Source: Escherichia coli
Lineage (GTDB): Bacteria > Pseudomonadota > Gammaproteobacteria > Enterobacterales > Enterobacteriaceae
Assembly (NCBI RefSeq): GCF_011045215.1
Contig: NZ_CP049201.1
Direction: 5' to 3' (one strand)
DNA length: 64,000 bases
Part shown: piece after piece, positions 43,260 to 58,537 of the stretch
How the letters are laid out: each line of letters starts with the position of its first letter
How positions within the stretch are numbered: the stretch's first letter is position 1
Notes under the pieces: generated by a model
Seen by the model: only the letters and a program-made list of their open reading frames with translations
Told to the model about the DNA's origin: nothing
The model's database searches: none
Position numbers and translations under genes: made by a program

Positions 43260-44059
43260 AAGATTTCATCACCGAAGCATGGCTAAGAGCGAACCATACG
43301 CTCAGCGAAGGCGCAGAGATCCATCTCCCTGCGGACAGTCGCCTGACGCCCTCTGCCCGGGAGTTACTGGAAAGCCGCCATCTGCGCATCAAGTTTATTG
43401 ACGAGCAGGGCCGCCTGTTTGTTGACGATGAGCAGCAGCAGCCACAGCCCGTTCACGGGCTGACCAGTAGCGATGAACATCCGCAGGCGTGCTGCGAACT
43501 GTGCCGCCAGCCGGTGGCAAAAAAGCCGGATACGCTGACTCATCTGTCGGCGGAAAAAATGGTTGCCAAAAGCGATCCGCGTCTGGGTTTTCGCGCGGTT
43601 CTCGACAGCACCATTGCGCTGGCTGTGTGGCTGCAAATTGAACTGGCGGAACCGTGGCAGCCGTGGCTGGCGGATATCCGTTCGCGTCTTGGCAACATTA
43701 TGCGTGCCGATGCGCTGGGGGAACCGCTGGGCGATCAAGCGATTGTCGGGCTTTCTGACGAAGATCTGCATCGGCTTTCTCACCAGCCGCTGCGCTATCT
43801 CGACCACGATCATCTGGTGCCGGAAGCCAGCCACGGGCGCGATGCTGCGTTGCTCAATCTGCTACGCACCAAAGTGCGGGAAACCGAAACCGTAGCGGCG
43901 CAGGTGTTTATCACCCGCAGCTTTGAAGTATTACGCCCGGACATCTTGCAGGCGCTGAACCGCCTTTCGAGCACGGTCTACGTGATGATGATCCTGAGCG
44001 TAACGAAGCAGCCGCTAACGGTGAAGCAGATCCAACAACGACTGGGGGAAACGCAATGA
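43256..44059 (+). CDS. eutT: Cob(I)alamin adenosyltransferase EutT
   Basis: 267-aa ORF, ATGA overlap with eutQ. Confidence 0.8.
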
Positions 44060-45072
44060 TTATTGAACGTTGTCGTGAACTGGCGTTGCGAGCGCCCGCC
44101 AGAGTGGTTTTTCCGGATGCGTTAGATCAACGTGTGCTGAAAGCTGCGCAATATTTACATCAACAAGGTCTGGCAACGCCCATTCTGGTCGCCAATCCGT
44201 TTGAACTTCGTCAGTTTGCGCTCAGTCATGGCGTAGCGATGGACGGGCTACAGGTTATTGATCCGCATGGCAACCTCGCAATGCGGGAAGAATTTGCTCA
44301 TCGCTGGCTGGCCCGCGCGGGCGAAAAAACGCCGCCGGATGCGCTGGAAAAACTTACCGATCCGCTGATGTTCGCCGCCGCAATGGTCAGCGCCGGTAAA
44401 GCGGATGTCTGTATCGCGGGCAACCTCTCTTCCACGGCGAATGTGCTGCGTGCCGGATTACGCATTATCGGCTTGCAGCCAGGCTGTAAAACGCTCTCAT
44501 CCATTTTCCTGATGCTGCCACAGTACAGCGGTCCGGCGTTGGGCTTTGCCGATTGCAGCGTGGTACCACAGCCGACGGCGGCGCAGCTGGCGGATATCGC
44601 GCTTGCCAGCGCCGAAACCTGGCGCGCCATCACCGGAGAAGAGCCGCGCGTGGCGATGCTGTCGTTTTCCAGTAACGGTAGCGCCCGTCACCCCTGCGTT
44701 GCCAATGTCCAGCAGGCGACAGAAATCGTCCGTGAGCGCGCACCAAAGCTGGTAGTCGATGGCGAGTTGCAGTTTGACGCCGCCTTCGTGCCGGAAGTGG
44801 CGGCGCAAAAAGCGCCTGCCAGCCCGCTACAGGGCAAGGCCAATGTGATGGTTTTTCCGTCGCTGGAAGCCGGAAATATTGGCTACAAAATCGCACAACG
44901 ACTCGGCGGATATCGTGCCGTCGGGCCATTGATACAAGGACTTGCCGCGCCGATGCACGATCTCTCTCGTGGTTGTAGCGTGCAGGAAATTATCGAGCTG
45001 GCGCTGGTGGCAGCTGTGCCGCGTCAGACAGAAGTAAACCGTGAAAGCAGTTTACAAACACTGGTTGAATGA
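44056..45072 (+). CDS. eutD: Phosphotransacetylase EutD
   Basis: 338-aa PTA-family ORF, ATGA overlap with eutT. Confidence 0.85.
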
Positions 45073-45110
45073 ACGGTCCCGTTCTGGACCCTGATAAAGA
45101 GGAAAGCACA

Positions 45111-45404
45111 ATGGAAGCATTAGGAATGATCGAAACCCGGGGCCTGGTTGCACTGATTGAGGCTTCTGACGCGATGGTGAAAGCTGCGCGCGTCAAGCTG
45201 GTTGGTGTTAAGCAGATTGGCGGCGGCCTGTGTACTGCCATGGTTCGTGGTGATGTTGCAGCCTGTAAAGCGGCGACCGATGCCGGTGCCGCAGCGGCAC
45301 AGCGTATCGGCGAGCTGGTATCTGTACACGTTATCCCGCGTCCGCACGGCGACCTGGAAGAAGTGTTCCCGATCGGCCTGAAAGGCGATAGCAGCAACCT
45401 GTAA
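45111..45404 (+). CDS. eutM: Microcompartment major shell protein EutM (BMC hexamer)
   Basis: ATG at 45111 gives [26 protein letters not shown] (97 aa). Confidence 0.9.
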
Positions 45405-45510
45405 TCACCCTGTGTGACGTCGATTCGGGCGTCACGCTCTCTCATTTTTCATTTTACCTTCCGCGGAGGGTAGGGGGAGCTTTTACCTGAAATACGCCAC
45501 GGAGGCGGGT

Positions 45511-45798
45511 ATGAAACTGGCAGTCGTCACTGGACAAATTGTTTGTACCGTACGCCATCACGGACTGGCGCATGACAAATTGCTGATGGTGGAAATGATT
45601 GATCCACAAGGTAATCCTGACGGGCAATGCGCCGTCGCCATCGACAATATTGGCGCGGGAACCGGGGAGTGGGTGTTACTGGTGAGTGGCAGTTCCGCCC
45701 GCCAGGCGCATAAAAGCGAAACGTCACCGGTCGATCTGTGCGTGATTGGCATTGTCGATGAGGTGGTGTCTGGCGGTCAGGTAATTTTCCACAAATAA
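45511..45798 (+). CDS. eutN: Microcompartment vertex protein EutN
   Basis: 95-aa ORF MKLAVVTGQIVCTVRHHGL (EutN/CcmL family). Confidence 0.85.
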   Translation: MKLAVVTGQIVCTVRHHGLAHDKLLMVEMIDPQGNPDGQCAVAIDNIGAGTGEWVLLVSGSSARQAHKSETSPVDLCVIGIVDEVVSGGQVIFHK

Positions 45799-45809
45799 GG
45801 CAGAACATC

Positions 45810-47213
45810 ATGAATCAACAGGATATTGAACAGGTGGTGAAAGCGGTACTGCTGAAAATGCAAAGCAGTGACACGCCGCCCGCCGCCGTTCATGAGATGG
45901 GCGTTTTCGCGTCCCTGGATGACGCTGTTGCGGCAGCCAAAATTGCCCAGCAAGGGTTAAAGAGCGTGGCAATGCGCCAGTTAGCCATTGCTGCCATTCG
46001 TGAAGCAGGCGAAAAACACGCCAGAGATTTAGCGGAACTTGCCGTCAGTGAAACCGGCATGGGTCGCGTTGAAGATAAATTTGCCAAAAACGTCGCTCAG
46101 GCACGCGGCACGCCAGGCGTTGAGTGTCTCTCTCCGCAAGTGCTGACGGGCGACAACGGCCTGACTTTAATTGAAAACGCGCCATGGGGCGTGGTGGCTT
46201 CGGTGACGCCGTCCACTAACCCGGCGGCAACCGTAATTAATAACGCCATCAGCCTGATTGCCGCGGGCAACAGCGTCATTTTTGCCCCGCATCCGGCGGC
46301 GAAAAAAGTCTCCCAGCGGGCGATCACGCTGCTCAACCAGGCGATTGTTGCCGCAGGCGGGCCGGAAAACTTACTGGTTACTGTGGCAAATCCGGATATC
46401 GAAACCGCGCAACGCTTGTTCAAGTTTCCGGGTATCGGCATGCTGGTGGTGACCGGCGGCGAAGCGGTAGTAGAAGCGGCGCGTAAACACACCAATAAAC
46501 GTCTGATTGCCGCAGGCGCTGGCAACCCGCCGGTAGTGGTGGATGAAACCGCTGACCTCGCCCGTGCTGCTCAGTCCATCGTCAAAGGCGCGTCTTTCGA
46601 TAACAACATCATTTGTGCCGACGAAAAGGTACTGATTGTTGTTGATAGCGTAGCCGATGAACTGATGCGTCTGATGGAAGGCCAGCACGCGGTGAAACTG
46701 ACCGCAGAACAGGCGCAGCAGCTGCAACCGGTGTTGCTGAAAAATATCGACGAGCGCGGAAAAGGCACCGTCAGCCGTGACTGGGTTGGTCGCGACGCAG
46801 GCAAAATCGCGGCGGCAATCGGCCTTAAAGTTCCGCAAGAAACGCGCCTGCTGTTTGTGGAAACCACCGCAGAACATCCGTTTGCCGTGACTGAACTGAT
46901 GATGCCGGTGTTGCCCGTCGTGCGCGTCGCCAACGTGGCGGATGCCATTGCGCTAGCGGTGAAACTGGAAGGCGGTTGCCACCACACGGCGGCAATGCAC
47001 TCGCGCAACATCGAAAACATGAACCAGATGGCGAATGCTATTGATACCAGCATTTTCGTTAAGAACGGACCGTGCATTGCCGGGCTGGGGCTGGGCGGGG
47101 AAGGCTGGACCACCATGACCATCACCACGCCAACCGGTGAAGGGGTAACCAGCGCGCGTACGTTTGTCCGTCTGCGTCGCTGTGTATTAGTCGATGCGTT
47201 TCGCATTGTTTAA
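45810..47213 (+). CDS. eutE: CoA-acylating acetaldehyde dehydrogenase EutE
   Basis: 467-aa aldehyde dehydrogenase-family ORF. Confidence 0.85.
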   Translation: MNQQDIEQVVKAVLLKMQSSDTPPAAVHEMGVFASLDDAVAAAKIAQQGLKSVAMRQLAIAAIREAGEKHARDLAELAVSETGMGRVEDKFAKNVAQARGTPGVECLSPQVLTGDNGLTLIENAPWGVVASVTPSTNPAATVINNAISLIAAGNSVIFAPHPAAKKVSQRAITLLNQAIVAAGGPENLLVTVANPDIETAQRLFKFPGIGMLVVTGGEAVVEAARKHTNKRLIAAGAGNPPVVVDETADLARAAQSIVKGASFDNNIICADEKVLIVVDSVADELMRLMEGQHAVKLTAEQAQQLQPVLLKNIDERGKGTVSRDWVGRDAGKIAAAIGLKVPQETRLLFVETTAEHPFAVTELMMPVLPVVRVANVADAIALAVKLEGGCHHTAAMHSRNIENMNQMANAIDTSIFVKNGPCIAGLGLGGEGWTTMTITTPTGEGVTSARTFVRLRRCVLVDAFRIV

Positions 47214-49237: not shown

Positions 49238-49238
49238 A

Positions 49239-49420
49239 TGCCGGATGCGACGCTTGCCGCGTCTTATCCGGCCTACGGGATTGCACATGTAGAGCGGATA
49301 AAGCGTTCACGCCGCATCCGCCAGTGGCGCGGTGCAATTGCCGGATGCGACGCTTGCCGCGTCTTATCCGGCCTACGGGATTGCACATGTAGTGCGGATA
49401 AGGCTTCACGCCGCATCCGC
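49239..49420. repeat. BIME/REP array between eutG and eutH
   Basis: Two identical 54-bp copies tgccggatgcgacgcttgccgcgtcttatccggcctacgggattgcacatgtag (49239-49292, 49339-49392), each followed by a gcggataa..gccgcatccg unit. Confidence 0.8.
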
Positions 49421-49452
49421 TAATAAATAACAACTAACAGGGAGTAAAGGCG

Positions 49453-50679: not shown

Positions 50680-52079
50680 ACACTCGCCAGCTACTGAGCG
50701 TCGGTATCGATATCGGCACTACCACCACCCAGGTGATTTTCTCCCACCTGGAACTGGTTAACCGTGCGGCGGTGTCGCAGGTGCCGCGCTACGAATTCAT
50801 CAAACGCGAAATTAGCTGGCAAAGCCCGGTGTTCTTTACCCCTGTCGATAAACAGGGTGATTTAAAAGAAGCGGAACTGAAATCGCTGATTTTAGAGCAA
50901 TATCAGGCTGCGGGCATTGCACCGGAAAGCGTTGATTCTGGTGCCATCATCATCACCGGTGAAAGCGCGAAAACCCGCAATGCTCGCCCGGCGGTGATGG
51001 CGCTCTCTCAGTCGCTGGGCGATTTTGTCGTTGCCAGCGCCGGGCCGCACCTCGAATCCGTGATCGCCGGTCACGGAGCCGGGGCACAAACCCTTTCTGA
51101 ACAACGGCTGTGTCGGGTACTGAATATCGACATCGGCGGTGGCACCGCGAACTACGCCCTGTTCGATGCCGGAAAAATCAGCGGCACTGCCTGCCTCAAC
51201 GTCGGTGGTCGCCTGCTGGAAACCGACAGCCAGGGGCGCGTGGTTTACGCTCATAAACCGGGGCAGATGATTGTGGATGAGTGCTTCGGCGCAGGCACCG
51301 ACGCCCGTTCGCTGACCGGCGCGCAGCTGGTGCAGGTTACCCGGCGGATGGCAGAGCTGATTGTCGAAGTGATTGACGGAACGCTCTCGCCGCTCGCGCA
51401 GGCATTGATGCAAACCGGTTTGCTGCCCGCAGGTGTTACGCCCGAAATCATTACGCTTTCTGGCGGCGTGGGCGAATGTTATCGCCACCAGCCCGCCGAC
51501 CCGTTCTGTTTTGCCGATATTGGCCCGCTTCTGGCAACGGCGCTGCATGACCATCCGCGCCTGCGTGAGATGAACGTGCAGTTTCCGGCGCAAACCGTGC
51601 GTGCCACGGTGATTGGCGCGGGGGCACATACCCTTTCGCTCTCTGGCAGCACAATCTGGCTTGAGGGCGTACAACTGCCGCTGCGCAATTTGCCGGTGGC
51701 GATCCCGATTGATGAAACGGATCTGGTGAGTGCCTGGCAACAGGCGCTGATTCAACTGGATCTTGATCCCAAAACTGACGCGTACGTGCTGGCGCTTCCC
51801 GCCTCGCTGCCTGTGCGTTACGCCGCGGTACTGACGGTCATCAACGCGTTGGTCGATTTCGTCGCGCGTTTTCCGAATCCGCATCCCCTGCTGGTGGTGG
51901 CCGGGCAGGACTTTGGTAAAGCTCTGGGCATGTTGTTGCGCCCACAGCTACAACAACTCCCGTTGGCAGTCATTGACGAAGTGATTGTCCGCGCGGGGGA
52001 CTATATCGACATTGGTACGCCTCTTTTTGGCGGATCGGTTGTGCCGGTGACGGTGAAATCACTCGCATTTCCTTCCTGA
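50676..52079 (+). CDS. eutA: Ethanolamine ammonia-lyase reactivase EutA
   Basis: 467-aa ORF, ATGA overlap with eutH; ends at the island junction. Confidence 0.85.
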   Translation: MNTRQLLSVGIDIGTTTTQVIFSHLELVNRAAVSQVPRYEFIKREISWQSPVFFTPVDKQGDLKEAELKSLILEQYQAAGIAPESVDSGAIIITGESAKTRNARPAVMALSQSLGDFVVASAGPHLESVIAGHGAGAQTLSEQRLCRVLNIDIGGGTANYALFDAGKISGTACLNVGGRLLETDSQGRVVYAHKPGQMIVDECFGAGTDARSLTGAQLVQVTRRMAELIVEVIDGTLSPLAQALMQTGLLPAGVTPEIITLSGGVGECYRHQPADPFCFADIGPLLATALHDHPRLREMNVQFPAQTVRATVIGAGAHTLSLSGSTIWLEGVQLPLRNLPVAIPIDETDLVSAWQQALIQLDLDPKTDAYVLALPASLPVRYAAVLTVINALVDFVARFPNPHPLLVVAGQDFGKALGMLLRPQLQQLPLAVIDEVIVRAGDYIDIGTPLFGGSVVPVTVKSLAFPS

Positions 52080-52172
52080 ATACTGTAGTTATCAGGCGTG
52101 GCGCTGGGTTGCGGGGTGTTAGTGGGATTATATCCGGCTGTGTATCCGGTCGGGGTGATTGGTCTGTATAGC

Positions 52173-52198
52173 AAAACCCGGCGCGGGGCCGGGTGAAC
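52173..52198 (-). terminator. Rho-independent terminator after island gene 52201-52764
   Basis: Minus strand reads ACCCGGCcccgcGCCGGGTTTTG; an identical hairpin recurs at 53821-53843. Confidence 0.55.
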
Positions 52199-52200
52199 TA

Positions 52201-52764
52201 TCATTCAGGGAACAAGTTGATTTGAAGCAAACTGCCAATGTATTTACCAGTGCTTTTAATTTTTCGCTTTGATGGCTTACACGAATTCAGGTTGACACCA
52301 GCCTGGCTAGATATTGGCTTGTATTGCCGCTCCGCCAGTACGATCAGGTCTGCCGCGTCTTTTAGCTTTCCATCGTTAGCCAGTTCCAATGCTCGATCCG
52401 CCATTTGCCCGCATTGTTGAATCAGCTTAAGTTGCGATACCTCCAGTCGCAATTGCTGGATTCGTTCTACCACTTTCGCCCTAATGCGCTTAGTTTCACG
52501 CATTCCCATTCTTAATGCCTGGTTGCCAGTAAGTGAGTAAACCTCTTTTTCTTTCCTGAAGTTTGCGGCTTTACCGTCAGCTTGGACGCGCATTTTATGC
52601 GCTTCCAAGAATTCGCCCTCCAATTCATCCCTGATCTTCGCGTTGAATCTGTCGTTCTTGAGTTCATTTAACCCTTCCGCCTTGCGGATCTGGTTGATTA
52701 ACTCCAACAATTCATCACTGCGGATACGCCACTCGCTATCAACCTGTACCAAGTCAAACATGTT
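52201..52764 (-). CDS. Hypothetical island protein (about 187 aa from ATG MFDLVQVD; track ORF extends to a TTG at 52854)
   Basis: ORF track; SD-like gggag upstream of the internal ATG; coiled-coil-rich; no confident family assignment. Confidence 0.5.
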   Translation of the reverse strand, partial: NMFDLVQVDSEWRIRSDELLELINQIRKAEGLNELKNDRFNAKIRDELEGEFLEAHKMRVQADGKAANFRKEKEVYSLTGNQALRMGMRETKRIRAKVVERIQQLRLEVSQLKLIQQCGQMADRALELANDGKLKDAADLIVLAERQYKPISSQAGVNLNSCKPSKRKIKSTGKYIGSLLQINLFPE

Positions 52765-52920
52765 GTTGCTCCCGTTTTGCTGCCATAGGGCAACGGCTCG
52801 CCAGCCTTTATCACCTCCTTTAGTTGTTGCGATTCTTAACTGAATGGTTATCAAAACGCTGCGTTAATATCATTGATATGTATCAAATTTGTTTTGTGAC
52901 GCGACAATGCCTTGTGAATA

Positions 52921-52948
52921 TCAATAAAAAACCCAGCGCTATGGCTGG
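52921..52948 (-). terminator. Rho-independent terminator after island gene 52995-53723
   Basis: Minus strand CCCAGCcatagcGCTGGG followed by TTTTTTATTG. Confidence 0.55.
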
Positions 52949-52994
52949 GCTTCTCTTGATGGCTGGTTTTGTAGCTAATCGTTGGCTTTAAGGG

Positions 52995-53723
52995 TTAAGC
53001 AACAATATTAATCCCGCTCCTTGTCGCTGCCTCTTTGGCAATTTTCCCCTCGTCCTCCAGTTTAGCTAACGCCTTGTACATCCAGTGGCGGCCCGGTGCG
53101 CCATGCAGCTTGCCATCTTTGCCGATCTTACCGAACGCATGTAACGCCAAATCGTCGATAGTCCCCTTGTATCCGCCTTGCTCCTTAAGCCATTGCTCAA
53201 GCTGTTCTACTTTGAATTTTGCCGGACGTCCGCCAGCCGCTTTTTGTTGTTTAGCTGGTTCTTCTGCAATATCGCTTTTGTTGTTTAAGTCCGTCATGAC
53301 TGGTTCTCCTACAATAGCGTCGCCCTTGGTCTCGATTTGTTGATTAACTGGTTTGTCTACAATATCGATTTTGTTGTTTAGCTGGTTTTTCAACATATCA
53401 ATCTCAGCCTTTAGCGCCTCGTTTTCTCTGGCTAGTTCTTCGCAACGCTTGATAAATTTTTGTTCCATGCCGTCCGGGCTATCAACGTGCGCCGTACCCA
53501 TTACGATCTTCCCGTTGCTATCGAAGATGACAGCTTGCCAACCGACTGCGGCGAGCATTTTAAACACATCATCAGCGGTCTTGTTTGTTGTATCGCGACG
53601 CCCTTTAAACTTGTGGCTAGCAGCGCCTTTGCCTTTGAAGCCCATTGCCTCAGCGACATCTTGCCGCGTCATCTTGCGAGCGCGCTTGTTCATGCCTAAC
53701 TCAACCCAATCCATGTATTCCAT
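52995..53723 (-). CDS. Hypothetical island protein, basic N-terminus plus coiled-coil and internal repeats
   Basis: 242-aa ORF; repeated NNKIDIVDKPVNQQ / NNKSDIAEEPAKQQ segments, mirrored by imperfect DNA tandem repeats around 53280-53400. Confidence 0.55.
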   Translation of the reverse strand: MEYMDWVELGMNKRARKMTRQDVAEAMGFKGKGAASHKFKGRRDTTNKTADDVFKMLAAVGWQAVIFDSNGKIVMGTAHVDSPDGMEQKFIKRCEELARENEALKAEIDMLKNQLNNKIDIVDKPVNQQIETKGDAIVGEPVMTDLNNKSDIAEEPAKQQKAAGGRPAKFKVEQLEQWLKEQGGYKGTIDDLALHAFGKIGKDGKLHGAPGRHWMYKALAKLEDEGKIAKEAATRSGINIVA

Positions 53724-53820
53724 ACATTACCTCATTTTGTCGCTAAACGTTTTGCTTTCTAATTTATCAACAAAAAAGCGGGTGATGGTAGCCGCTTTGA
53801 TGGGGAAGTTGACAGGGATC

Positions 53821-53843
53821 AAAAACCCGGCGCGGGGCCGGGT
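53821..53843 (-). terminator. Rho-independent terminator (second copy of the 52173 hairpin)
   Basis: Minus strand ACCCGGCcccgcGCCGGGTTTTTGATC, just downstream of gene 53861-54091. Confidence 0.55.
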
Positions 53844-53860
53844 ATTAGCAAGTTAGATGA

Positions 53861-54091
53861 TTACTGGGTATCGCTGTCAGAAAGTAGTCCAATTGATTTA
53901 AAGAATTTCATCACATCCTGATAGCGATACATGACGCCCCGCCCGGTTCCCAGCACATCAACAGGGTCGGGGAATGGAGTTCCGTTCTGTTCCCATTTCT
54001 TACGCCACGAATAAAACGTTCCCCTGCTAATTCCGCCCAGCATCCGGCAGATGGCAGGGCGGCTAAGAAGGATTACTTCATTTTTATCCAT
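53861..54091 (-). CDS. AlpA/excisionase-like HTH DNA-binding protein
   Basis: 76 aa; LSRPAICRMLGGISRGTFYSWRKKW resembles the AlpA-family HTH. Confidence 0.5.
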   Translation of the reverse strand: MDKNEVILLSRPAICRMLGGISRGTFYSWRKKWEQNGTPFPDPVDVLGTGRGVMYRYQDVMKFFKSIGLLSDSDTQ

Positions 54092-54110
54092 TGTTTAATC
54101 TCCCGTGTGT

Positions 54111-54299
54111 TTATTTTGCGTAGATTAAGGCAAATGCTCTTTTGGCTTTGCTTAGTTCGTATTCGCGTTTTTCTATGATTGCCATCAGTTCTTGTGCGGT
54201 GGCTGGCACGCCCGCTCTTATCAGCGCAATCTTAGTATCCATAGCGCACACTCTTTCACGCACCATATCGAAGATAATTTCCGCTCTATCGTGTTTCAT
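54111..54299 (-). CDS. Small hypothetical island protein (62 aa)
   Basis: ORF track; co-directional and closely spaced with the AlpA-like gene. Confidence 0.4.
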   Translation of the reverse strand: MKHDRAEIIFDMVRERVCAMDTKIALIRAGVPATAQELMAIIEKREYELSKAKRAFALIYAK

Positions 54300-54502
54300 G
54301 ATTTCACCTCATATTTGTTGCTAAACCTTGTAAACCCTTGTTTGACTACAAAATACACCTGGTTAAGCGACTGATAAAATGATTTAGGTCAATTTATTGG
54401 TTGATGATTTATGTCTGATTGGATTTGTCTACAAATGGCAGGTTAGTCAACAAATGATGAAACCAGGGAATGGCGGTTATAATGTCAGCGGGGATTGTGA
54501 GA

Positions 54503-54545
54503 AAGGCCCGGGTAGGTTGCTAACTGCCTGGGCCTTTATTTTTGG
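54503..54545 (+). terminator. Plus-strand rho-independent terminator candidate inside the minus-strand gene array
   Basis: aaaggcccgggtagg..cctgggccttt hairpin (about 14 bp stem with two G-U pairs) followed by atttttgg; on the minus strand no U-tract follows. Confidence 0.45.
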
Positions 54546-54648
54546 CGCGTGTACGTGAAATCTGGAAAATTTGCAGGGTAGTTGTTGAGGGATTTTTCGC
54601 GTAGGAGCGTGAAGGGTCCGCCAGTCATCGCCCTGACGTAGCGGTGAA

Positions 54649-55050
54649 TTACTTGCGAGGCTCACCCATCGGCCAGGCACCTTCATTGCGACGATAACCA
54701 ATCCGGTACTCTTCCGGCAGCGGCAAGCCCTGCTCACGATATGGACGCAGATCGAAGCCAAAAACAGGATCGTCGTCGTAGGCGAGGAATAGCCCGGCAG
54801 GCTCTGCCACGCGTTCGATAATCAGTTCCCCATCTTCAACGAAGAAGATCAGATTATCGCGAAAGTCCGTTACCTCACTGACGTGATAACATTCGGCATG
54901 TGCGTCCAGCCAGGCTTCTCGGTATTCCTGAATCTCGGCTTCTGACCATGTTGAAACAGGACGCTCCCAAATTCCCAGGCTGGATTTGCCCTGGCGGGAG
55001 AATAATTTTGCCTCTTTGCTCTGCTCTGGTTTTCTGTTTAAAAAGCTCAT
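54649..55050 (-). CDS. Hypothetical island protein (133 aa)
   Basis: ORF track; SD ggagaa upstream of ATG; start overlaps a TAA of an upstream open frame (TAATG). Confidence 0.5.
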   Translation of the reverse strand: MSFLNRKPEQSKEAKLFSRQGKSSLGIWERPVSTWSEAEIQEYREAWLDAHAECYHVSEVTDFRDNLIFFVEDGELIIERVAEPAGLFLAYDDDPVFGFDLRPYREQGLPLPEEYRIGYRRNEGAWPMGEPRK

Positions 55051-55186
55051 TATTCTTCTCCTTTGAACGGATTGTTCTTGCTCTCTAATAACTTAGCGCG
55101 ACCCAGTAACGTCCGGGCAAGCGCCTCCGCCTTCCTTAGCCTAAGCCCTGCGTCTTCTGCGTCCAGATCTACATTCCTGATAGCCT

Positions 55187-55450
55187 CTACAGCCTGCTCC
55201 GCTGCGTCCGGGCGTGAATCCACTTAAATATGCCGATATGCTCACGAAAGTCTGGATGCTCATATTGCCAGCGGCAGATTGTTCTGAAGCTCGGCATGTC
55301 AGGCATGTTGCCAATCTCTCTGAGACTATGGCCTTCAGCTACCAGCAAGCAGATTTCTTCAGCGATAGCGACCCCATACTTAGCGCTTTTTCTGCTTAAA
55401 CTTGTGACATCAACAGGTAAGTTATTGATTTCTTTATCATCACCCTTCAT
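55187..55450 (-). CDS. Hypothetical HTH-like island protein (87 aa)
   Basis: ORF track; SLREIGNMPDMPSFRTICRWQ segment is HTH-like; preceded by the 11-bp repeat array. Confidence 0.45.
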   Translation of the reverse strand: MKGDDKEINNLPVDVTSLSRKSAKYGVAIAEEICLLVAEGHSLREIGNMPDMPSFRTICRWQYEHPDFREHIGIFKWIHARTQRSRL

Positions 55451-55522
55451 AATTACCCCCGAATTGATAGCGAATTGATAGCGAATTACCCCGAATTACC
55501 CCCGAATTACCCCCGAATCACC
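55450..55522. repeat. Array of seven 10-11 bp direct repeats (gaattaccccc / gaattgatagc)
   Basis: taattaccccc, gaattgatagc x2, gaattacccc, gaattaccccc x2, gaatcacc, read directly from sequence. Confidence 0.9.
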
Positions 55523-55527
55523 ATCAT

Positions 55528-55809
55528 TTAACCCTCGCCTACGTCTGCGTCGATGCTTGCTAACTGGCTGTGTAGATCGCGTTCAATCATTTTTACCTTT
55601 TTCACAAAATCCCTTTCCTCGGCGGTGGCGGGCGCGCCCTGGGCTATGTTTTTCGTGAGGTCGTGGAAAGTGCCGAAAACATAAAGGGAGAACAGCCTTA
55701 ATTGTTGCCGCTTCATTGGCAAATCACTGTTGCTATGTTTGATCTCAGCGACGCCTTTCGAAATAACACGGGCCATCCCATGACAAATTCTTAACGTAAG
55801 CGCAGACAT
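55528..55809 (-). CDS. Hypothetical island protein (93 aa)
   Basis: ORF track only. Confidence 0.4.
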   Translation of the reverse strand: MSALTLRICHGMARVISKGVAEIKHSNSDLPMKRQQLRLFSLYVFGTFHDLTKNIAQGAPATAEERDFVKKVKMIERDLHSQLASIDADVGEG

Positions 55810-55930
55810 GATATTTACTCCCCGACTGGTATAATGAACGTGGTTTTAAACGTTGCTATTTGCTAACCATTTAATCTGTTAACTCAATTTCGCATTGTTG
55901 GCCCGGCACGAACACCGGGCTTTTCTTTAC

Positions 55931-56272
55931 CTATTCGAAATAGCTTCCAATATCCGGTGTCCGGGTATCAGTTTTCCGGGTCGGCTCGAAGTACGATTCC
56001 AGATCCGGCGTTTTCGGCCCACGCTGGGCGTTGGCGGCGGGTTGCTTTTCTTCTGGCTGTTCCGGCTGTTTACTACCAAATCGGCGCTCCAGTTGGTCCA
56101 TCAGCACTACCATCATTTCCTGGACCAGCTTTTCATCGGCTTTATCAAGGTTCTCCAATACCATCGCCATCCCTTTGCGGAATTTAAGCTCAGCGTCGTC
56201 CGGTTCCGGTGCTGATTCGTTTGCTTTAACTGCCAGGGCGATCCGGCGTTTTGCTTCATCCAAAAAATTCAT
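55931..56272 (-). CDS. Hypothetical acidic island protein ending in SYFE motifs (113 aa)
   Basis: ORF track; C-terminus DLESYFEPTRKTDTRTPDIGSYFE. Confidence 0.5.
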   Translation of the reverse strand: MNFLDEAKRRIALAVKANESAPEPDDAELKFRKGMAMVLENLDKADEKLVQEMMVVLMDQLERRFGSKQPEQPEEKQPAANAQRGPKTPDLESYFEPTRKTDTRTPDIGSYFE

Positions 56273-56277
56273 TTTGT

Positions 56278-56721
56278 TTATTCCCCCATGTGGAAATAGT
56301 CATCTAAGCGGCGATTAAACTCGTCGCTGCCATCGAAATATTCACGGATACTTTTATTGACCAGATCATCACCGTCGAAATACTGGCGCGTGAAATCGTC
56401 CAATTCCCCATCGAAGTATTGACGTGTGAAATCGTCTAATTCCCCTTCAAAATATTGACGCGCATCAGGCGCTCTGTTTGGCGCTGTAGCAATCTCAGAT
56501 TGATTGCCCTGTAACTTATCGACGTTTGCTAAATACACGCCCAGTGAGCTGTTTGTTCCCATTACCGCAAGCATTTTCCGGCGATCTGCCATGTTCGGCG
56601 CGAGCGATGATAATTGAGCTTTAATTTTGTCCACTTCCTGATTAACAATACGGTCAATCAGTGGTTGATTCGTGCGAATAATTTCCTGTGCCAACTGGCG
56701 AATATATTCTTTGCGTGTCAT
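56278..56721 (-). CDS. Hypothetical island protein with tandem QYF[ED]GELDDFTR repeats (147 aa)
   Basis: ORF track; encoded by 36-bp tandem DNA repeats at about 56376-56463. Confidence 0.5.
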   Translation of the reverse strand: MTRKEYIRQLAQEIIRTNQPLIDRIVNQEVDKIKAQLSSLAPNMADRRKMLAVMGTNSSLGVYLANVDKLQGNQSEIATAPNRAPDARQYFEGELDDFTRQYFDGELDDFTRQYFDGDDLVNKSIREYFDGSDEFNRRLDDYFHMGE

Positions 56722-56739
56722 TTCTTATCTCCGTTCATC

Positions 56740-57123
56740 TCATTTCTGTAAAAAACCCATACCGTGGCCCAGGCGATTTGAAATTTTCCCGGCAAGCATC
56801 CGGCGAATATGTTTTTCGTTGATGATGTCGTGAGTGACCGGATCTTCACCTTTCATACATTCCGGCATCTGGTCAAACAATACGGAAGCGCCTTCATCAA
56901 TAATCTCAGTTAAGACTGCTGGCAGCATATTAATGATGCGTTCTGCTTCGTCGTTCATTGCTTTATCGAACGCTTTTTTATCCATTGCTTCGGCGGATGG
57001 TTTGTAATTGTCGCCAGTCAGGTTAAGGTAAGTGTTGTTTGGGTGATACATGGCATTCACTCCTTTTACTTTGATTGTTGCGATTTCTTTGTTTTTGTTA
57101 ATTGTGGTGCCTTTGACTTTCAT
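56740..57123 (-). CDS. Hypothetical island protein (127 aa)
   Basis: ORF track; ATGA start/stop overlap with the upstream HNH-like gene. Confidence 0.45.
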   Translation of the reverse strand: MKVKGTTINKNKEIATIKVKGVNAMYHPNNTYLNLTGDNYKPSAEAMDKKAFDKAMNDEAERIINMLPAVLTEIIDEGASVLFDQMPECMKGEDPVTHDIINEKHIRRMLAGKISNRLGHGMGFLQK

Positions 57124-57539
57124 GCTGCTTCTTCCTTCAATAATTGTGGCAATTTGCCTGTTAGTTCGATTTCTTCATTAATAGATGCAAGTAACTGTCT
57201 CAGTTTGCGATGTAATAGCTGGTGACGCTCTCTCGGCATTTTTACCAGGTTGCTTAAGCGGTTATTCTGCGGATCGTAGTCCCGGTGATGGATATCATAT
57301 TTTCGCTCATCGTAAACACCGTAGCACCATAACCAGGCAGCCTTTTCTATTGTCATGCAGGTACGTTTTCCGTTGCTTAAACAAATGGTTATACTCAGGT
57401 GACCGCGATGTTTTTCGTTTAAGCTGCCTTTAATTACCTGGCCTGTGCTGCGGTTGTGAAATAAACCAGTTTCAGGGTCGTAGTGATATTTCTGTCGTAA
57501 TATATCAACTGATAACCGTAGTCTTGTAAGATTGTCCAT
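57120..57539 (-). CDS. HNH-family endonuclease-like protein
   Basis: 139 aa; AAWLWCYGVYDERKYDIHHRDYDPQNNRLSNL resembles the phage HNH_3 pattern (from memory). Confidence 0.55.
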   Translation of the reverse strand: MDNLTRLRLSVDILRQKYHYDPETGLFHNRSTGQVIKGSLNEKHRGHLSITICLSNGKRTCMTIEKAAWLWCYGVYDERKYDIHHRDYDPQNNRLSNLVKMPRERHQLLHRKLRQLLASINEEIELTGKLPQLLKEEAA

Positions 57540-57571
57540 GATGTTCTACCTCAATGTGATTGCTGTGTTAA

Positions 57572-57757
57572 TTATCTTTCTTCTTGTGGCCTATTCAGCC
57601 AGGCCTCGATCTCGCTACGCCAGAATAATAAACGACAATTTCGCGGCGTAAATGGTTGGGGTATTGTCTTATCTTTTAATAGCCATCTTCGAATCGTTCT
57701 TGTTGATACCCCCGCTATTAATGCGAAAGCTCGCAGATCTATAACTTCATCTCTCAT
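57572..57757 (-). CDS. AlpA-family transcriptional regulator
   Basis: Internal ATG with SD gaggt; MRDEVIDLRAFALIAGVSTRTIRRWL...LFWRSEIEAWL matches the AlpA HTH signature; the track's N-terminal extension is low-complexity repeat translation. Confidence 0.6.
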   Translation of the reverse strand: MRDEVIDLRAFALIAGVSTRTIRRWLLKDKTIPQPFTPRNCRLLFWRSEIEAWLNRPQEER

Positions 57758-57780
57758 GTTCTTACCTCGATTAAAAAGGA

Positions 57781-57839
57781 CCGCCCCCAGGGAAAGAAGA
57801 AAGAGGAAAGAGGAAAGAGGAAAAACTTCCTGGAGGCGG
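57781..57839. repeat. Homopurine heptamer repeat (GAAAGAR x4) inside an 11-bp inverted repeat
   Basis: ccgcccccagg [agggaaagaagaaagaggaaagaggaaagaggaaaaa] cttcctggaggcgg; 24-82 nt upstream of the AlpA-like start codon. Confidence 0.85.
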
Positions 57840-58537
57840 GTAATTCGGATTCCTTGAATCAATATCCCATGTGATACTTAATATTATAAAGGGCGGCGGG
57901 CTATGTCGCTATTTTTGCCATAGTGTGACACCATTAATTTATTAACAAAAAGTGCTATTTATTAAATCTTTTTTCGGCAGGTGCAAGAAAAATAATTGCG
58001 ACACGGTAGGGTAGCGGGCGATAATAATCATGTAAGGAGTAGCCACCTTACGCCTCCAAATGTGATCGATAAAAATAATAGTCTCAATTCTTTCTCCCGC
58101 TTCTCGGCGGTTTTTTTGCCTGCAATCACACATCAAAAAAACACATCGAATTGATATGCCTTTAAAACGCAATATAACGCATTTTGACGGCCTTAATTTT
58201 TGCCTATCCACTCGGAAGCGTAAGCCTGTTTTGATTCGTCTGGCGTGGAATGGTGCGGCGGTAATATCAGATCTCAGCGTTCTGTGTGGTGGGATGGAAT
58301 AGCCTGGCAGGATCTGCGTGTGATTTCATTCATCCAACCTTGGATGAATGGTCCGATCTGGTCAGTAGTCCGGCACAAATAAAAAGCGCCTGCGGGCGTA
58401 GCAGACGCTTTGTGTACAGGCTTATCAGTACGGGATGTGCACGAATGATTATACCACCCTCAGAAAAACGTTTGCTTTTGCACTTAAACGGATAAGTGGT
58501 ATTTCTTGGTCTTCATTGGTTTTAGCTCACCATAGGC

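Follow-up and report, generated by a model that had tools for sequence, protein, structure and literature searches.

A conserved two-hairpin RNA element between the shell-protein genes eutM and eutN of the Escherichia coli eut operon

Introduction

How a single operon supplies the many hexamers and the very few pentamers of a microcompartment shell, at a ratio of about 100:1, is an unsettled question. The 64,000-nucleotide stretch of E. coli DNA analysed here (the window) contains the eut operon on its + strand, in which the genes for the major hexameric shell protein, EutM, and the pentameric vertex protein, EutN, are neighbours that do not abut. A sequence-only reading of this DNA had singled out a hairpin followed by a T-rich tract in the 106-nt gap between the two genes and proposed it as a partial terminator or processing site that could tune shell-protein stoichiometry. 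Here, we describe the structure, conservation and relatives of this gap and weigh the roles that it may have in setting the output of eutM and eutN.

Layout of the eutM-eutN junction

The junction and its neighbouring genes are laid out as follows.

44056-45072, + strand: eutD (open reading frame list and K-12 annotation)
45111-45404, + strand: eutM, 97 aa, major hexameric shell protein (open reading frame list and RefSeq annotation of identical loci)
45405-45510, + strand: eutM-eutN gap, 106 nt
45511-45798, + strand: eutN, 95 aa, pentameric vertex protein (open reading frame list and annotation)
45810-47213, + strand: eutE (open reading frame list and K-12 annotation)

A 901-nt query around the junction matches 5,408 of the 5,426 complete E. 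coli genomes at an identity of at least 95%, and the matched loci are annotated pta(eutD)-eutM-eutN-eutE. The eutM-eutN and eutG-eutH gaps are the only long junctions within the operon, and neither K-12 nor other records carry an annotated feature in the former. The eutM stop codon is the TAA at 45402-45404. RefSeq places the eutM start at 45111 (97 aa), with the ribosome-binding site AAGAGGA; an in-frame ATG further upstream opens a 111-aa reading frame (45069-45404) that overlaps the end of eutD, and this longer start is used by some annotations, for example that of LF82 ('335 bp').

Further along the window, past eutA (which ends at 52079), a prophage-like insert at 52080-57900 breaks the operon at a position analogous to that of CPZ-55 in K-12; in related genomes, the insert has HTH, terminase-small-subunit-like and tape-measure genes. 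This 6-kb stretch reaches a coverage of at least 80% in none of the complete E. coli genomes and hence represents an uncommon variant; in this strain it separates eutBCLKR from the main promoter.

Two hairpins and a spacer

Folding and alignment divide most of the gap into four parts, referred to below as H1, H2, the spacer and the initiation region.

45412-45437, + strand: hairpin H1, GUGUGACGUC-GAUUCG-GGCGUCACGC, 10 bp, -16.2 kcal/mol, terminator-like in a consensus scan
45436-45480, + strand: bipartite hairpin H2, -17.9 kcal/mol, in the MFE and centroid folds
45481-45495, + strand: A/U-rich spacer UUUUACCUGAAAUAC, predicted to be single-stranded (alignment and fold)
45496-45510, + strand: eutN translation initiation region (alignment and fold)

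The hairpin proposed between eutM and eutN is present: its arms pair, and the gap that holds it is exactly 106 nt long. The core of H1 consists of GTGACGTC (45414-45421) and GGCGTCAC (45428-45435), which form 8 bp around the loop GAUUCG, and two outer pairs lengthen this core (45414-45435) to 10 bp; the hairpin starts 7-9 nt past the eutM stop codon. When a 30-nt fold is slid over the window, 15 sites on the + strand (0.08% of positions) fold as well as H1, and about 0.025 sites of this grade are expected by chance in a 106-nt gap. The gap as a whole folds at -41.4 kcal/mol, with z = -2.75 to -2.9 relative to dinucleotide shuffles.

The T-rich tail also exists, as the G-free 26-nt stretch CTCTCTCATTTTTCATTTTACCTTCC (45437-45462), but it is not a U-tract adjoining H1, and the first TTTTT run lies 7-9 nt beyond the H1 stem. 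Instead, the tract is predicted by the folds to be the 5' arm and bulge of H2 and not the tail of a terminator. In this bipartite structure, the outer stem pairs GCUCUCUC (45436-45443) with GGGGGAGC (45473-45480), a U-rich bulge of 11 nt, AUUUUUCAUUU (45444-45454), accounts for most of the tract, and the inner hairpin is UACCUUC-CGCG-GAGGGUA (45455-45472). Directly 3' of H2 comes UUUUACCUGAAAU, followed by the eutN ribosome-binding site; within the spacer, UUUU adjoins the base of H2, and hairpin-type loci hardly vary at ACCUGAA. The eutN Shine-Dalgarno sequence GGAGG (45501-45505) lies partly within a small GCC-ACGGA-GGC hairpin, which is found in single and alignment folds and shows one-sided changes only. 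Its predicted paired probability is 0.56, against 0.35 for that of eutM, and CGGAGG is invariant across all enterobacterial loci compared.

No covariance model of Rfam matched positions 44000-47000 on either strand at E-values up to 10, and no sigma-70-like promoter was found in the gap on either strand.

Conservation and covariation

Scanning for EutN in one genome per species yielded 48 loci, and every eutM-eutN gap was extracted from them. H1 is present in 25 of 43 junctions, REP cores in 14 and other GC-rich hairpins in 4. The carriers of H1 are Escherichia, the C. freundii complex, a second Citrobacter group, Klebsiella spallanzanii, Buttiauxella, Entomohabitans and Yokenella. Enterobacterial gaps measure 52-144 nt, and all of them fold better than their shuffles (z -1.1 to -5.8).

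H1 and H2, both predicted with high confidence, maintain their pairing through compensatory changes. Over 11 distinct orthologous sequences, 92.7% of the cells of H1 are paired, a value of the kind that shuffles almost never reach, and three pairs carry double changes; pair 7 is U-G, C-G or U-A, and the basal G-C is replaced by A-U in Yokenella. The loop of H1 varies from 4 to 22 nt across orthologues while the stem is kept, which fits a hairpin with a structure-based role and argues against a DNA site of fixed spacing. For H2, 96.3% of the cells are paired in 9 sequences from 4 lineages, again with double changes at three pairs (GC/CG, AU/GC and CG/UA). The place of H2 is taken in Entomohabitans by a second hairpin of different sequence, which is likewise followed by UGUUACCUGAA.

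The gap is conserved above the level expected for neutral sequence. Its identity within Escherichia is 98-99%, compared with 85-96% at the 4-fold sites of eutM and eutN, and relative to Citrobacter it is 78-84%, compared with 54-68%; it diverges 3-5 times more slowly than the neighbouring synonymous sites. Escherichia shows few variants, located in the loops of H1 and H2, at the top of the outer stem of H2 and in a G-run; the loops, the bulge and the spacer are also conserved in this genus. In 22 sequences, the 6-bp core GTGACG/CGTCAC does not vary. At least 90% identity over the gap is retained in 5,407 of the 5,426 E. coli genomes, in each of which the element occupies one place only. A pattern scan of metagenomes for more diverse copies returned two real matches, both Buttiauxella-like, the other 19 being chance hits. 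The gap is a conserved, unannotated two-hairpin RNA element that follows the main shell gene.

Four individual cases stand out among the loci. E. coli 90-1 (NZ_CP050047.1; locus L071, 1501-2860) carries an IS911 that splits the gap after position 79, downstream of H2 but ahead of the eutN ribosome-binding site, and this strain is a natural mutant in which the hairpins are parted from eutN. For E. coli EC931 (NZ_CP049118.1), the match with the 901-nt query is limited to its first 293 nt, and a 'BMC domain-containing protein' is annotated beside the aldehyde dehydrogenase; a deletion or fusion may have removed the gap together with eutN. K. spallanzanii (L042) combines a hairpin-type gap with the E. 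coli-like EutM C-terminus GDSSNL, and its sister species (L028-L030) combine REPs with GDSNI, which suggests a recombination tract over the 3' end of eutM and the gap. Lastly, contigs of 269-466 bp assigned to Gemelliphila, Prolixibacteraceae and Caballeronia (L018, L032 and L043) encode EutN 87-100% identical to that of E. coli and most likely reflect enterobacterial contamination of these assemblies.

REP sequences at the same junction

REP/BIME sequences occupy the eutM-eutN junction in Salmonella, most Klebsiella, C. koseri, C. amalonaticus, C. sedlakii, Pseudocitrobacter and Pluralibacter, and their cores are the same motifs as those of the BIME in the eutG-eutH gap of the window. The latter gap (49238-49452, 215 nt; fold z = -3.2) contains four REP units, namely GCCGGATGCGACGC...CTTATCCGGCCTAC twice and two inverted partners. 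The REP consensus core (of the GCCGGATAAG / CTTATCCGGCCTAC type) has no match in any H1-type gap.

Like REP/BIME sequences such as that of malE-malF, the E. coli element consists of stable imperfect-palindrome hairpins within an operon, placed just downstream of the more highly expressed cistron, and REPs fill the very same junction in other enterobacteria. Unlike them, it lacks the REP consensus, is single-copy where REPs are dispersed in many copies, and has a locus-specific sequence that is conserved as an orthologue. It is plausible, and we suggest it with reserve, that the module is a locus-specific counterpart of protective hairpins of the REP type. REPs enter many gaps, and their presence at this junction may be opportunistic and not a functional replacement.

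Two further candidate functions of the gap were rejected. A small open reading frame (GTG at 45414, 19 codons) has its frame broken by H1 loop indels of +1, +5, +9, +15 and +16 nt. Long-range pairing of the 5' arm of H1 with GUCGUCAC (eutN codons 5-7) was discarded because these codons are kept in REP-type loci that have no H1 and are changed in Buttiauxella, which has it.

Termination and transcript levels

The stem of H1 (8-10 bp with 6 GC pairs and a 6-nt loop) falls within the range for terminator stems (5-14 bp, loop 3-8 nt); its tail, GCUCUCUCAUUUUU, does not qualify as a U-tract. H1 has a tail score of 0.7-2.0 and the UUUU that follows H2 one of 3.24; other terminator-like sites of the window score 2.2-3.6. 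The sites were also ranked with a re-implemented d'Aubenton-Carafa score, which uses modern energy parameters, is conservative and serves for ranking only, good-looking terminators reaching no more than about -6 to +6. On this discriminant, H1 scores -20 to -50 and H2 -20, compared with -6 to +6 for the other terminator-like sites of the window. A U-rich tail is missing in Yokenella and weak in Entomohabitans, T-runs are absent from REP junctions, and B. noackiae is the one orthologue with a good tail right behind H1. The conserved feature is the hairpin and not the combination of hairpin and U-tract. The element resembles intrinsic terminators in its GC-rich hairpin, the U residues downstream and the match in the consensus scan. 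It differs from them in the separation of the U-tract from H1, the bulged stem of H2, the low scores and the unconserved tails, and also in that the genes downstream of the gap are well expressed.

Published expression data bear on the same point. In induced E. coli W3110, the relative protein amounts are EutQ 100, EutM 96, EutL 39, EutB 37, EutE 27, EutD 10 and EutN 1 (PMC11334477). In LF82, RPKM values in minimal medium and with bile salts, respectively, are 13 and 83 for eutT, 108 and 357 for eutD, 55 and 177 for eutM, 5 and 62 for eutN, 14 and 149 for eutE, and 13 and 147 for eutJ (PMC6379400), these being per-gene values with a gene-to-gene noise (eutH 514) as large as the effect. At the gene level, the RPKM are not uniform and lie higher for eutD-eutM than for eutN, which fits a stabilised or terminated upstream species. 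Any lasting step-down after eutM is small at most, because eutE and eutJ (149 and 147) nearly equal eutM (177) on induction. This recovery excludes a strong terminator, and polarity at the junction cannot by itself set the EutM:EutN ratio; since EutN lies 27-fold under EutE, most of this ratio is set elsewhere, at translation or protein turnover. The suggestion that the gap tunes shell stoichiometry agrees with the excess of eutM RNA over eutN RNA but, with eutE recovering, is insufficient to explain the scarcity of EutN. EHEC shows uniform fold changes over the junction. Published E. coli Term-seq data, obtained with eut switched off, contain no sense-strand 3' end at the gap, and a literature search for Term-seq, sRNA or RNase data at the eutM-eutN junction found none.

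The Term-seq data (PMC7815308, supplementary file 1) do contain a weak antisense 3' end in the 3' part of eutM, at about 45337 on the - strand (MG1655 2572217, + strand), which implies that an antisense transcript crosses the gap; no promoter-like site for it was found. In uninduced LF82, eutD (108), eutH (106) and eutR (142) have RPKM far above those of their upstream neighbours (PMC6379400), which hints at internal promoters before eutD and eutH, besides the known eutR promoter.

A leaky intrinsic terminator or attenuator would stop transcription in part at H2 and its UUUU, or at H1 and the pyrimidine tract, and would lower eutN and all genes downstream. The call of H1 as terminator-like by the scan, the UUUUA directly after H2 with its tail score, the positive discriminant of Buttiauxella noackiae, in which UUUCUUU follows H1 at once, and the drop in uninduced LF82 from 55 for eutM to 5, 14 and 13 for eutN, eutE and eutJ are all consistent with such a device. 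It is nevertheless unlikely, given that the discriminants of H1 and H2 in E. coli lie well under those of terminator-like sites in the same window, that the tail of H1 opens with GCUCUCUC and H2 carries an 11-nt bulge, that Yokenella and all REP-type junctions do without U-rich tails, that induced eutE and eutJ RNA are at about the level of eutM, and that the EutB, EutC and EutL proteins are abundant. Moreover, Salmonella genetics has shown that autoinduction of eutR requires read-through of the entire operon.

A proposed protective and processing module

We tentatively favour the view that the gap acts as a REP-like protective 3' stem-loop and processing module, which would favour eutM-containing mRNA and involve leaky termination at most. 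The full-length eut transcript would pass through the gap, and an endonuclease, probably RNase E, would cleave it in the spacer, most likely between GC and UUUU at the foot of H2. H1 and H2 would then stop 3'-to-5' exonucleases, so that the eutM RNA would outlive the eutN segment, and the hairpins may add some pausing or leaky termination. A role as barriers to exonucleases is classically ascribed to REP/BIME sequences and to protective 3' structures in operons. RNase E prefers a purine at -2, A or U at +1, and U at +2 and +3. The preference for U at +2 has been documented (PMC5927463). The GC-UUUU step at 45480/45481, predicted to be unpaired, fits as a candidate RNase E site. A stable, conserved structure 3' of the more abundant cistron, as expected for differential decay, is what the locus presents, EutM being far above EutN in protein and eutM above eutN in RPKM.

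Protective 3' structures shape operon stoichiometry genome-wide in E. coli, by a mechanism documented for malEFG (PMC5927463). As in that study by Dar and Sorek (2018), a conserved hairpin lies between more and less abundant operon segments, with heightened conservation over the structure. The structures of PMC5927463 are mostly located inside the downstream coding region, whereas the eutM-eutN element is fully intergenic and known here from its sequence, eut having been neither expressed nor analysed in that work. Intergenic stem-loops by processing sites have also been proposed to set subunit stoichiometry in the cip-cel cellulosome operon, under the name of selective RNA processing and stabilisation (SRPS; PMC4423207). 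Both cases concern intergenic stem-loops in an operon for a large protein assembly; the cip-cel system belongs to Clostridia, with different RNases and experimentally mapped processing sites, and for eut we infer the mechanism.

Alternative explanations

The scarcity of EutN could also arise at translation, with the gap serving as a leader of eutN in which a standby or S1 site, partial sequestration of the Shine-Dalgarno sequence or competing pyrimidine tracts set a low output of the vertex protein. Although the GGAGG of eutN is a consensus sequence, EutN amounts to only about 1% of EutM and roughly 4% of EutE, which speaks for gene-specific control rather than polarity; the block UUUUACCUGAA...CGGAGG...AUG is the most conserved, unpaired parts are conserved as well, and pairing partly covers the Shine-Dalgarno sequence (0.56, compared with 0.35 for eutM). 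Yet the small hairpin around it is weak and has one-sided changes only, REP-type loci have neither ACCUGAA nor H2 and yet share the Shine-Dalgarno sequence and the first codons, the Shine-Dalgarno-like purine-rich arm of H2 is lost in Buttiauxella and Entomohabitans, and iBAQ is imprecise for a protein of 95 aa. We consider such a leader distinctly unlikely. Other structure-based roles are less probable still. A hairpin at most 15 nt from the stop codon could stall ribosomes and lower EutM, and Liang and Deutscher reportedly described such stalling of terminating ribosomes by REPs in 2015; alternatively, following a cut upstream of H1, the structure could shield the 5' terminus of the eutN-distal RNA in the manner of papBA, a type of model that has been described (PMC5927463). 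All H1-type loci have H1 starting 7-9 nt past the stop codon, and the stems of REPs start about 5-28 nt past it. Against these roles, EutM is the most abundant shell protein, so that its down-regulation is not suggested, eutN RNA lies under and not above eutM RNA, and the stretch from the eutM stop codon to H1 contains no RNase E-like motif.

It is also improbable that the hairpins are without current function, a slowly decaying relic or by-product in a junction that tolerates REP and IS insertions. Replacement of the whole element by REPs in 14 of 43 junctions and the IS911 within the gap of strain 90-1 would suit this reading, but synonymous sites nearby diverge 3-5 times faster than the gap, both stems are kept by compensatory changes, and 5,407 of 5,426 E. 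coli genomes retain at least 90% identity. A double-stranded DNA site for a dimeric protein would explain why the 6-bp core GTGACG/CGTCAC is invariant in 22 sequences, why each arm taken alone comes close to a palindrome (72.7% pairing at slide -3) and why GTGACGTCAC is a perfect 10-bp palindrome in some species. However, the spacing of the arms varies by 18 bp, the arms of the C. freundii group are not palindromic and yet are mutually complementary (GACGCC/GGCGTC), and Yokenella alters both ends jointly (GC to AU), which makes a DNA site very improbable; a CRP-like or fixed-spacing site is ruled out by the variable arm spacing. At the other extreme, the H1-H2-ACCUGAA module (about 100 nt) could be a dedicated cis-regulatory RNA of eut operons in enterobacteria, specific in sequence and serving, for instance, as a structural switch or as the binding platform of a small RNA or protein; it would actively set EutM:EutN for closed shells, with REPs as only a crude substitute. 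We give this reading a slim chance, and keep it in view because the GUGACG/CGUCAC core and the unpaired residues of bulge and spacer are invariant beyond the need of a generic hairpin. The conservation of loops, bulge and spacer within Escherichia also counts against the protective module, being more than a plain exonuclease barrier needs.

Returning to the protective module, the original proposal of a partial terminator or processing site holds as far as a conserved, covarying structure at a fitting position is concerned, and its terminator side does not, the terminator features being weak and unconserved. Most likely, the element serves in processing or attenuation; it is no canonical terminator and does not suffice to account for the scarcity of EutN.

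Implications

The mechanism considered likely here is well known in other operons, and the conceptual gain is modest. A conserved RNA element at the eutM-eutN boundary offers a handle for testing post-transcriptional control of shell stoichiometry, and sister genera, which have non-homologous REP hairpins there, supply a natural comparison. The element is also relevant to the engineering of synthetic Eut compartments, in which the gap is usually dropped.
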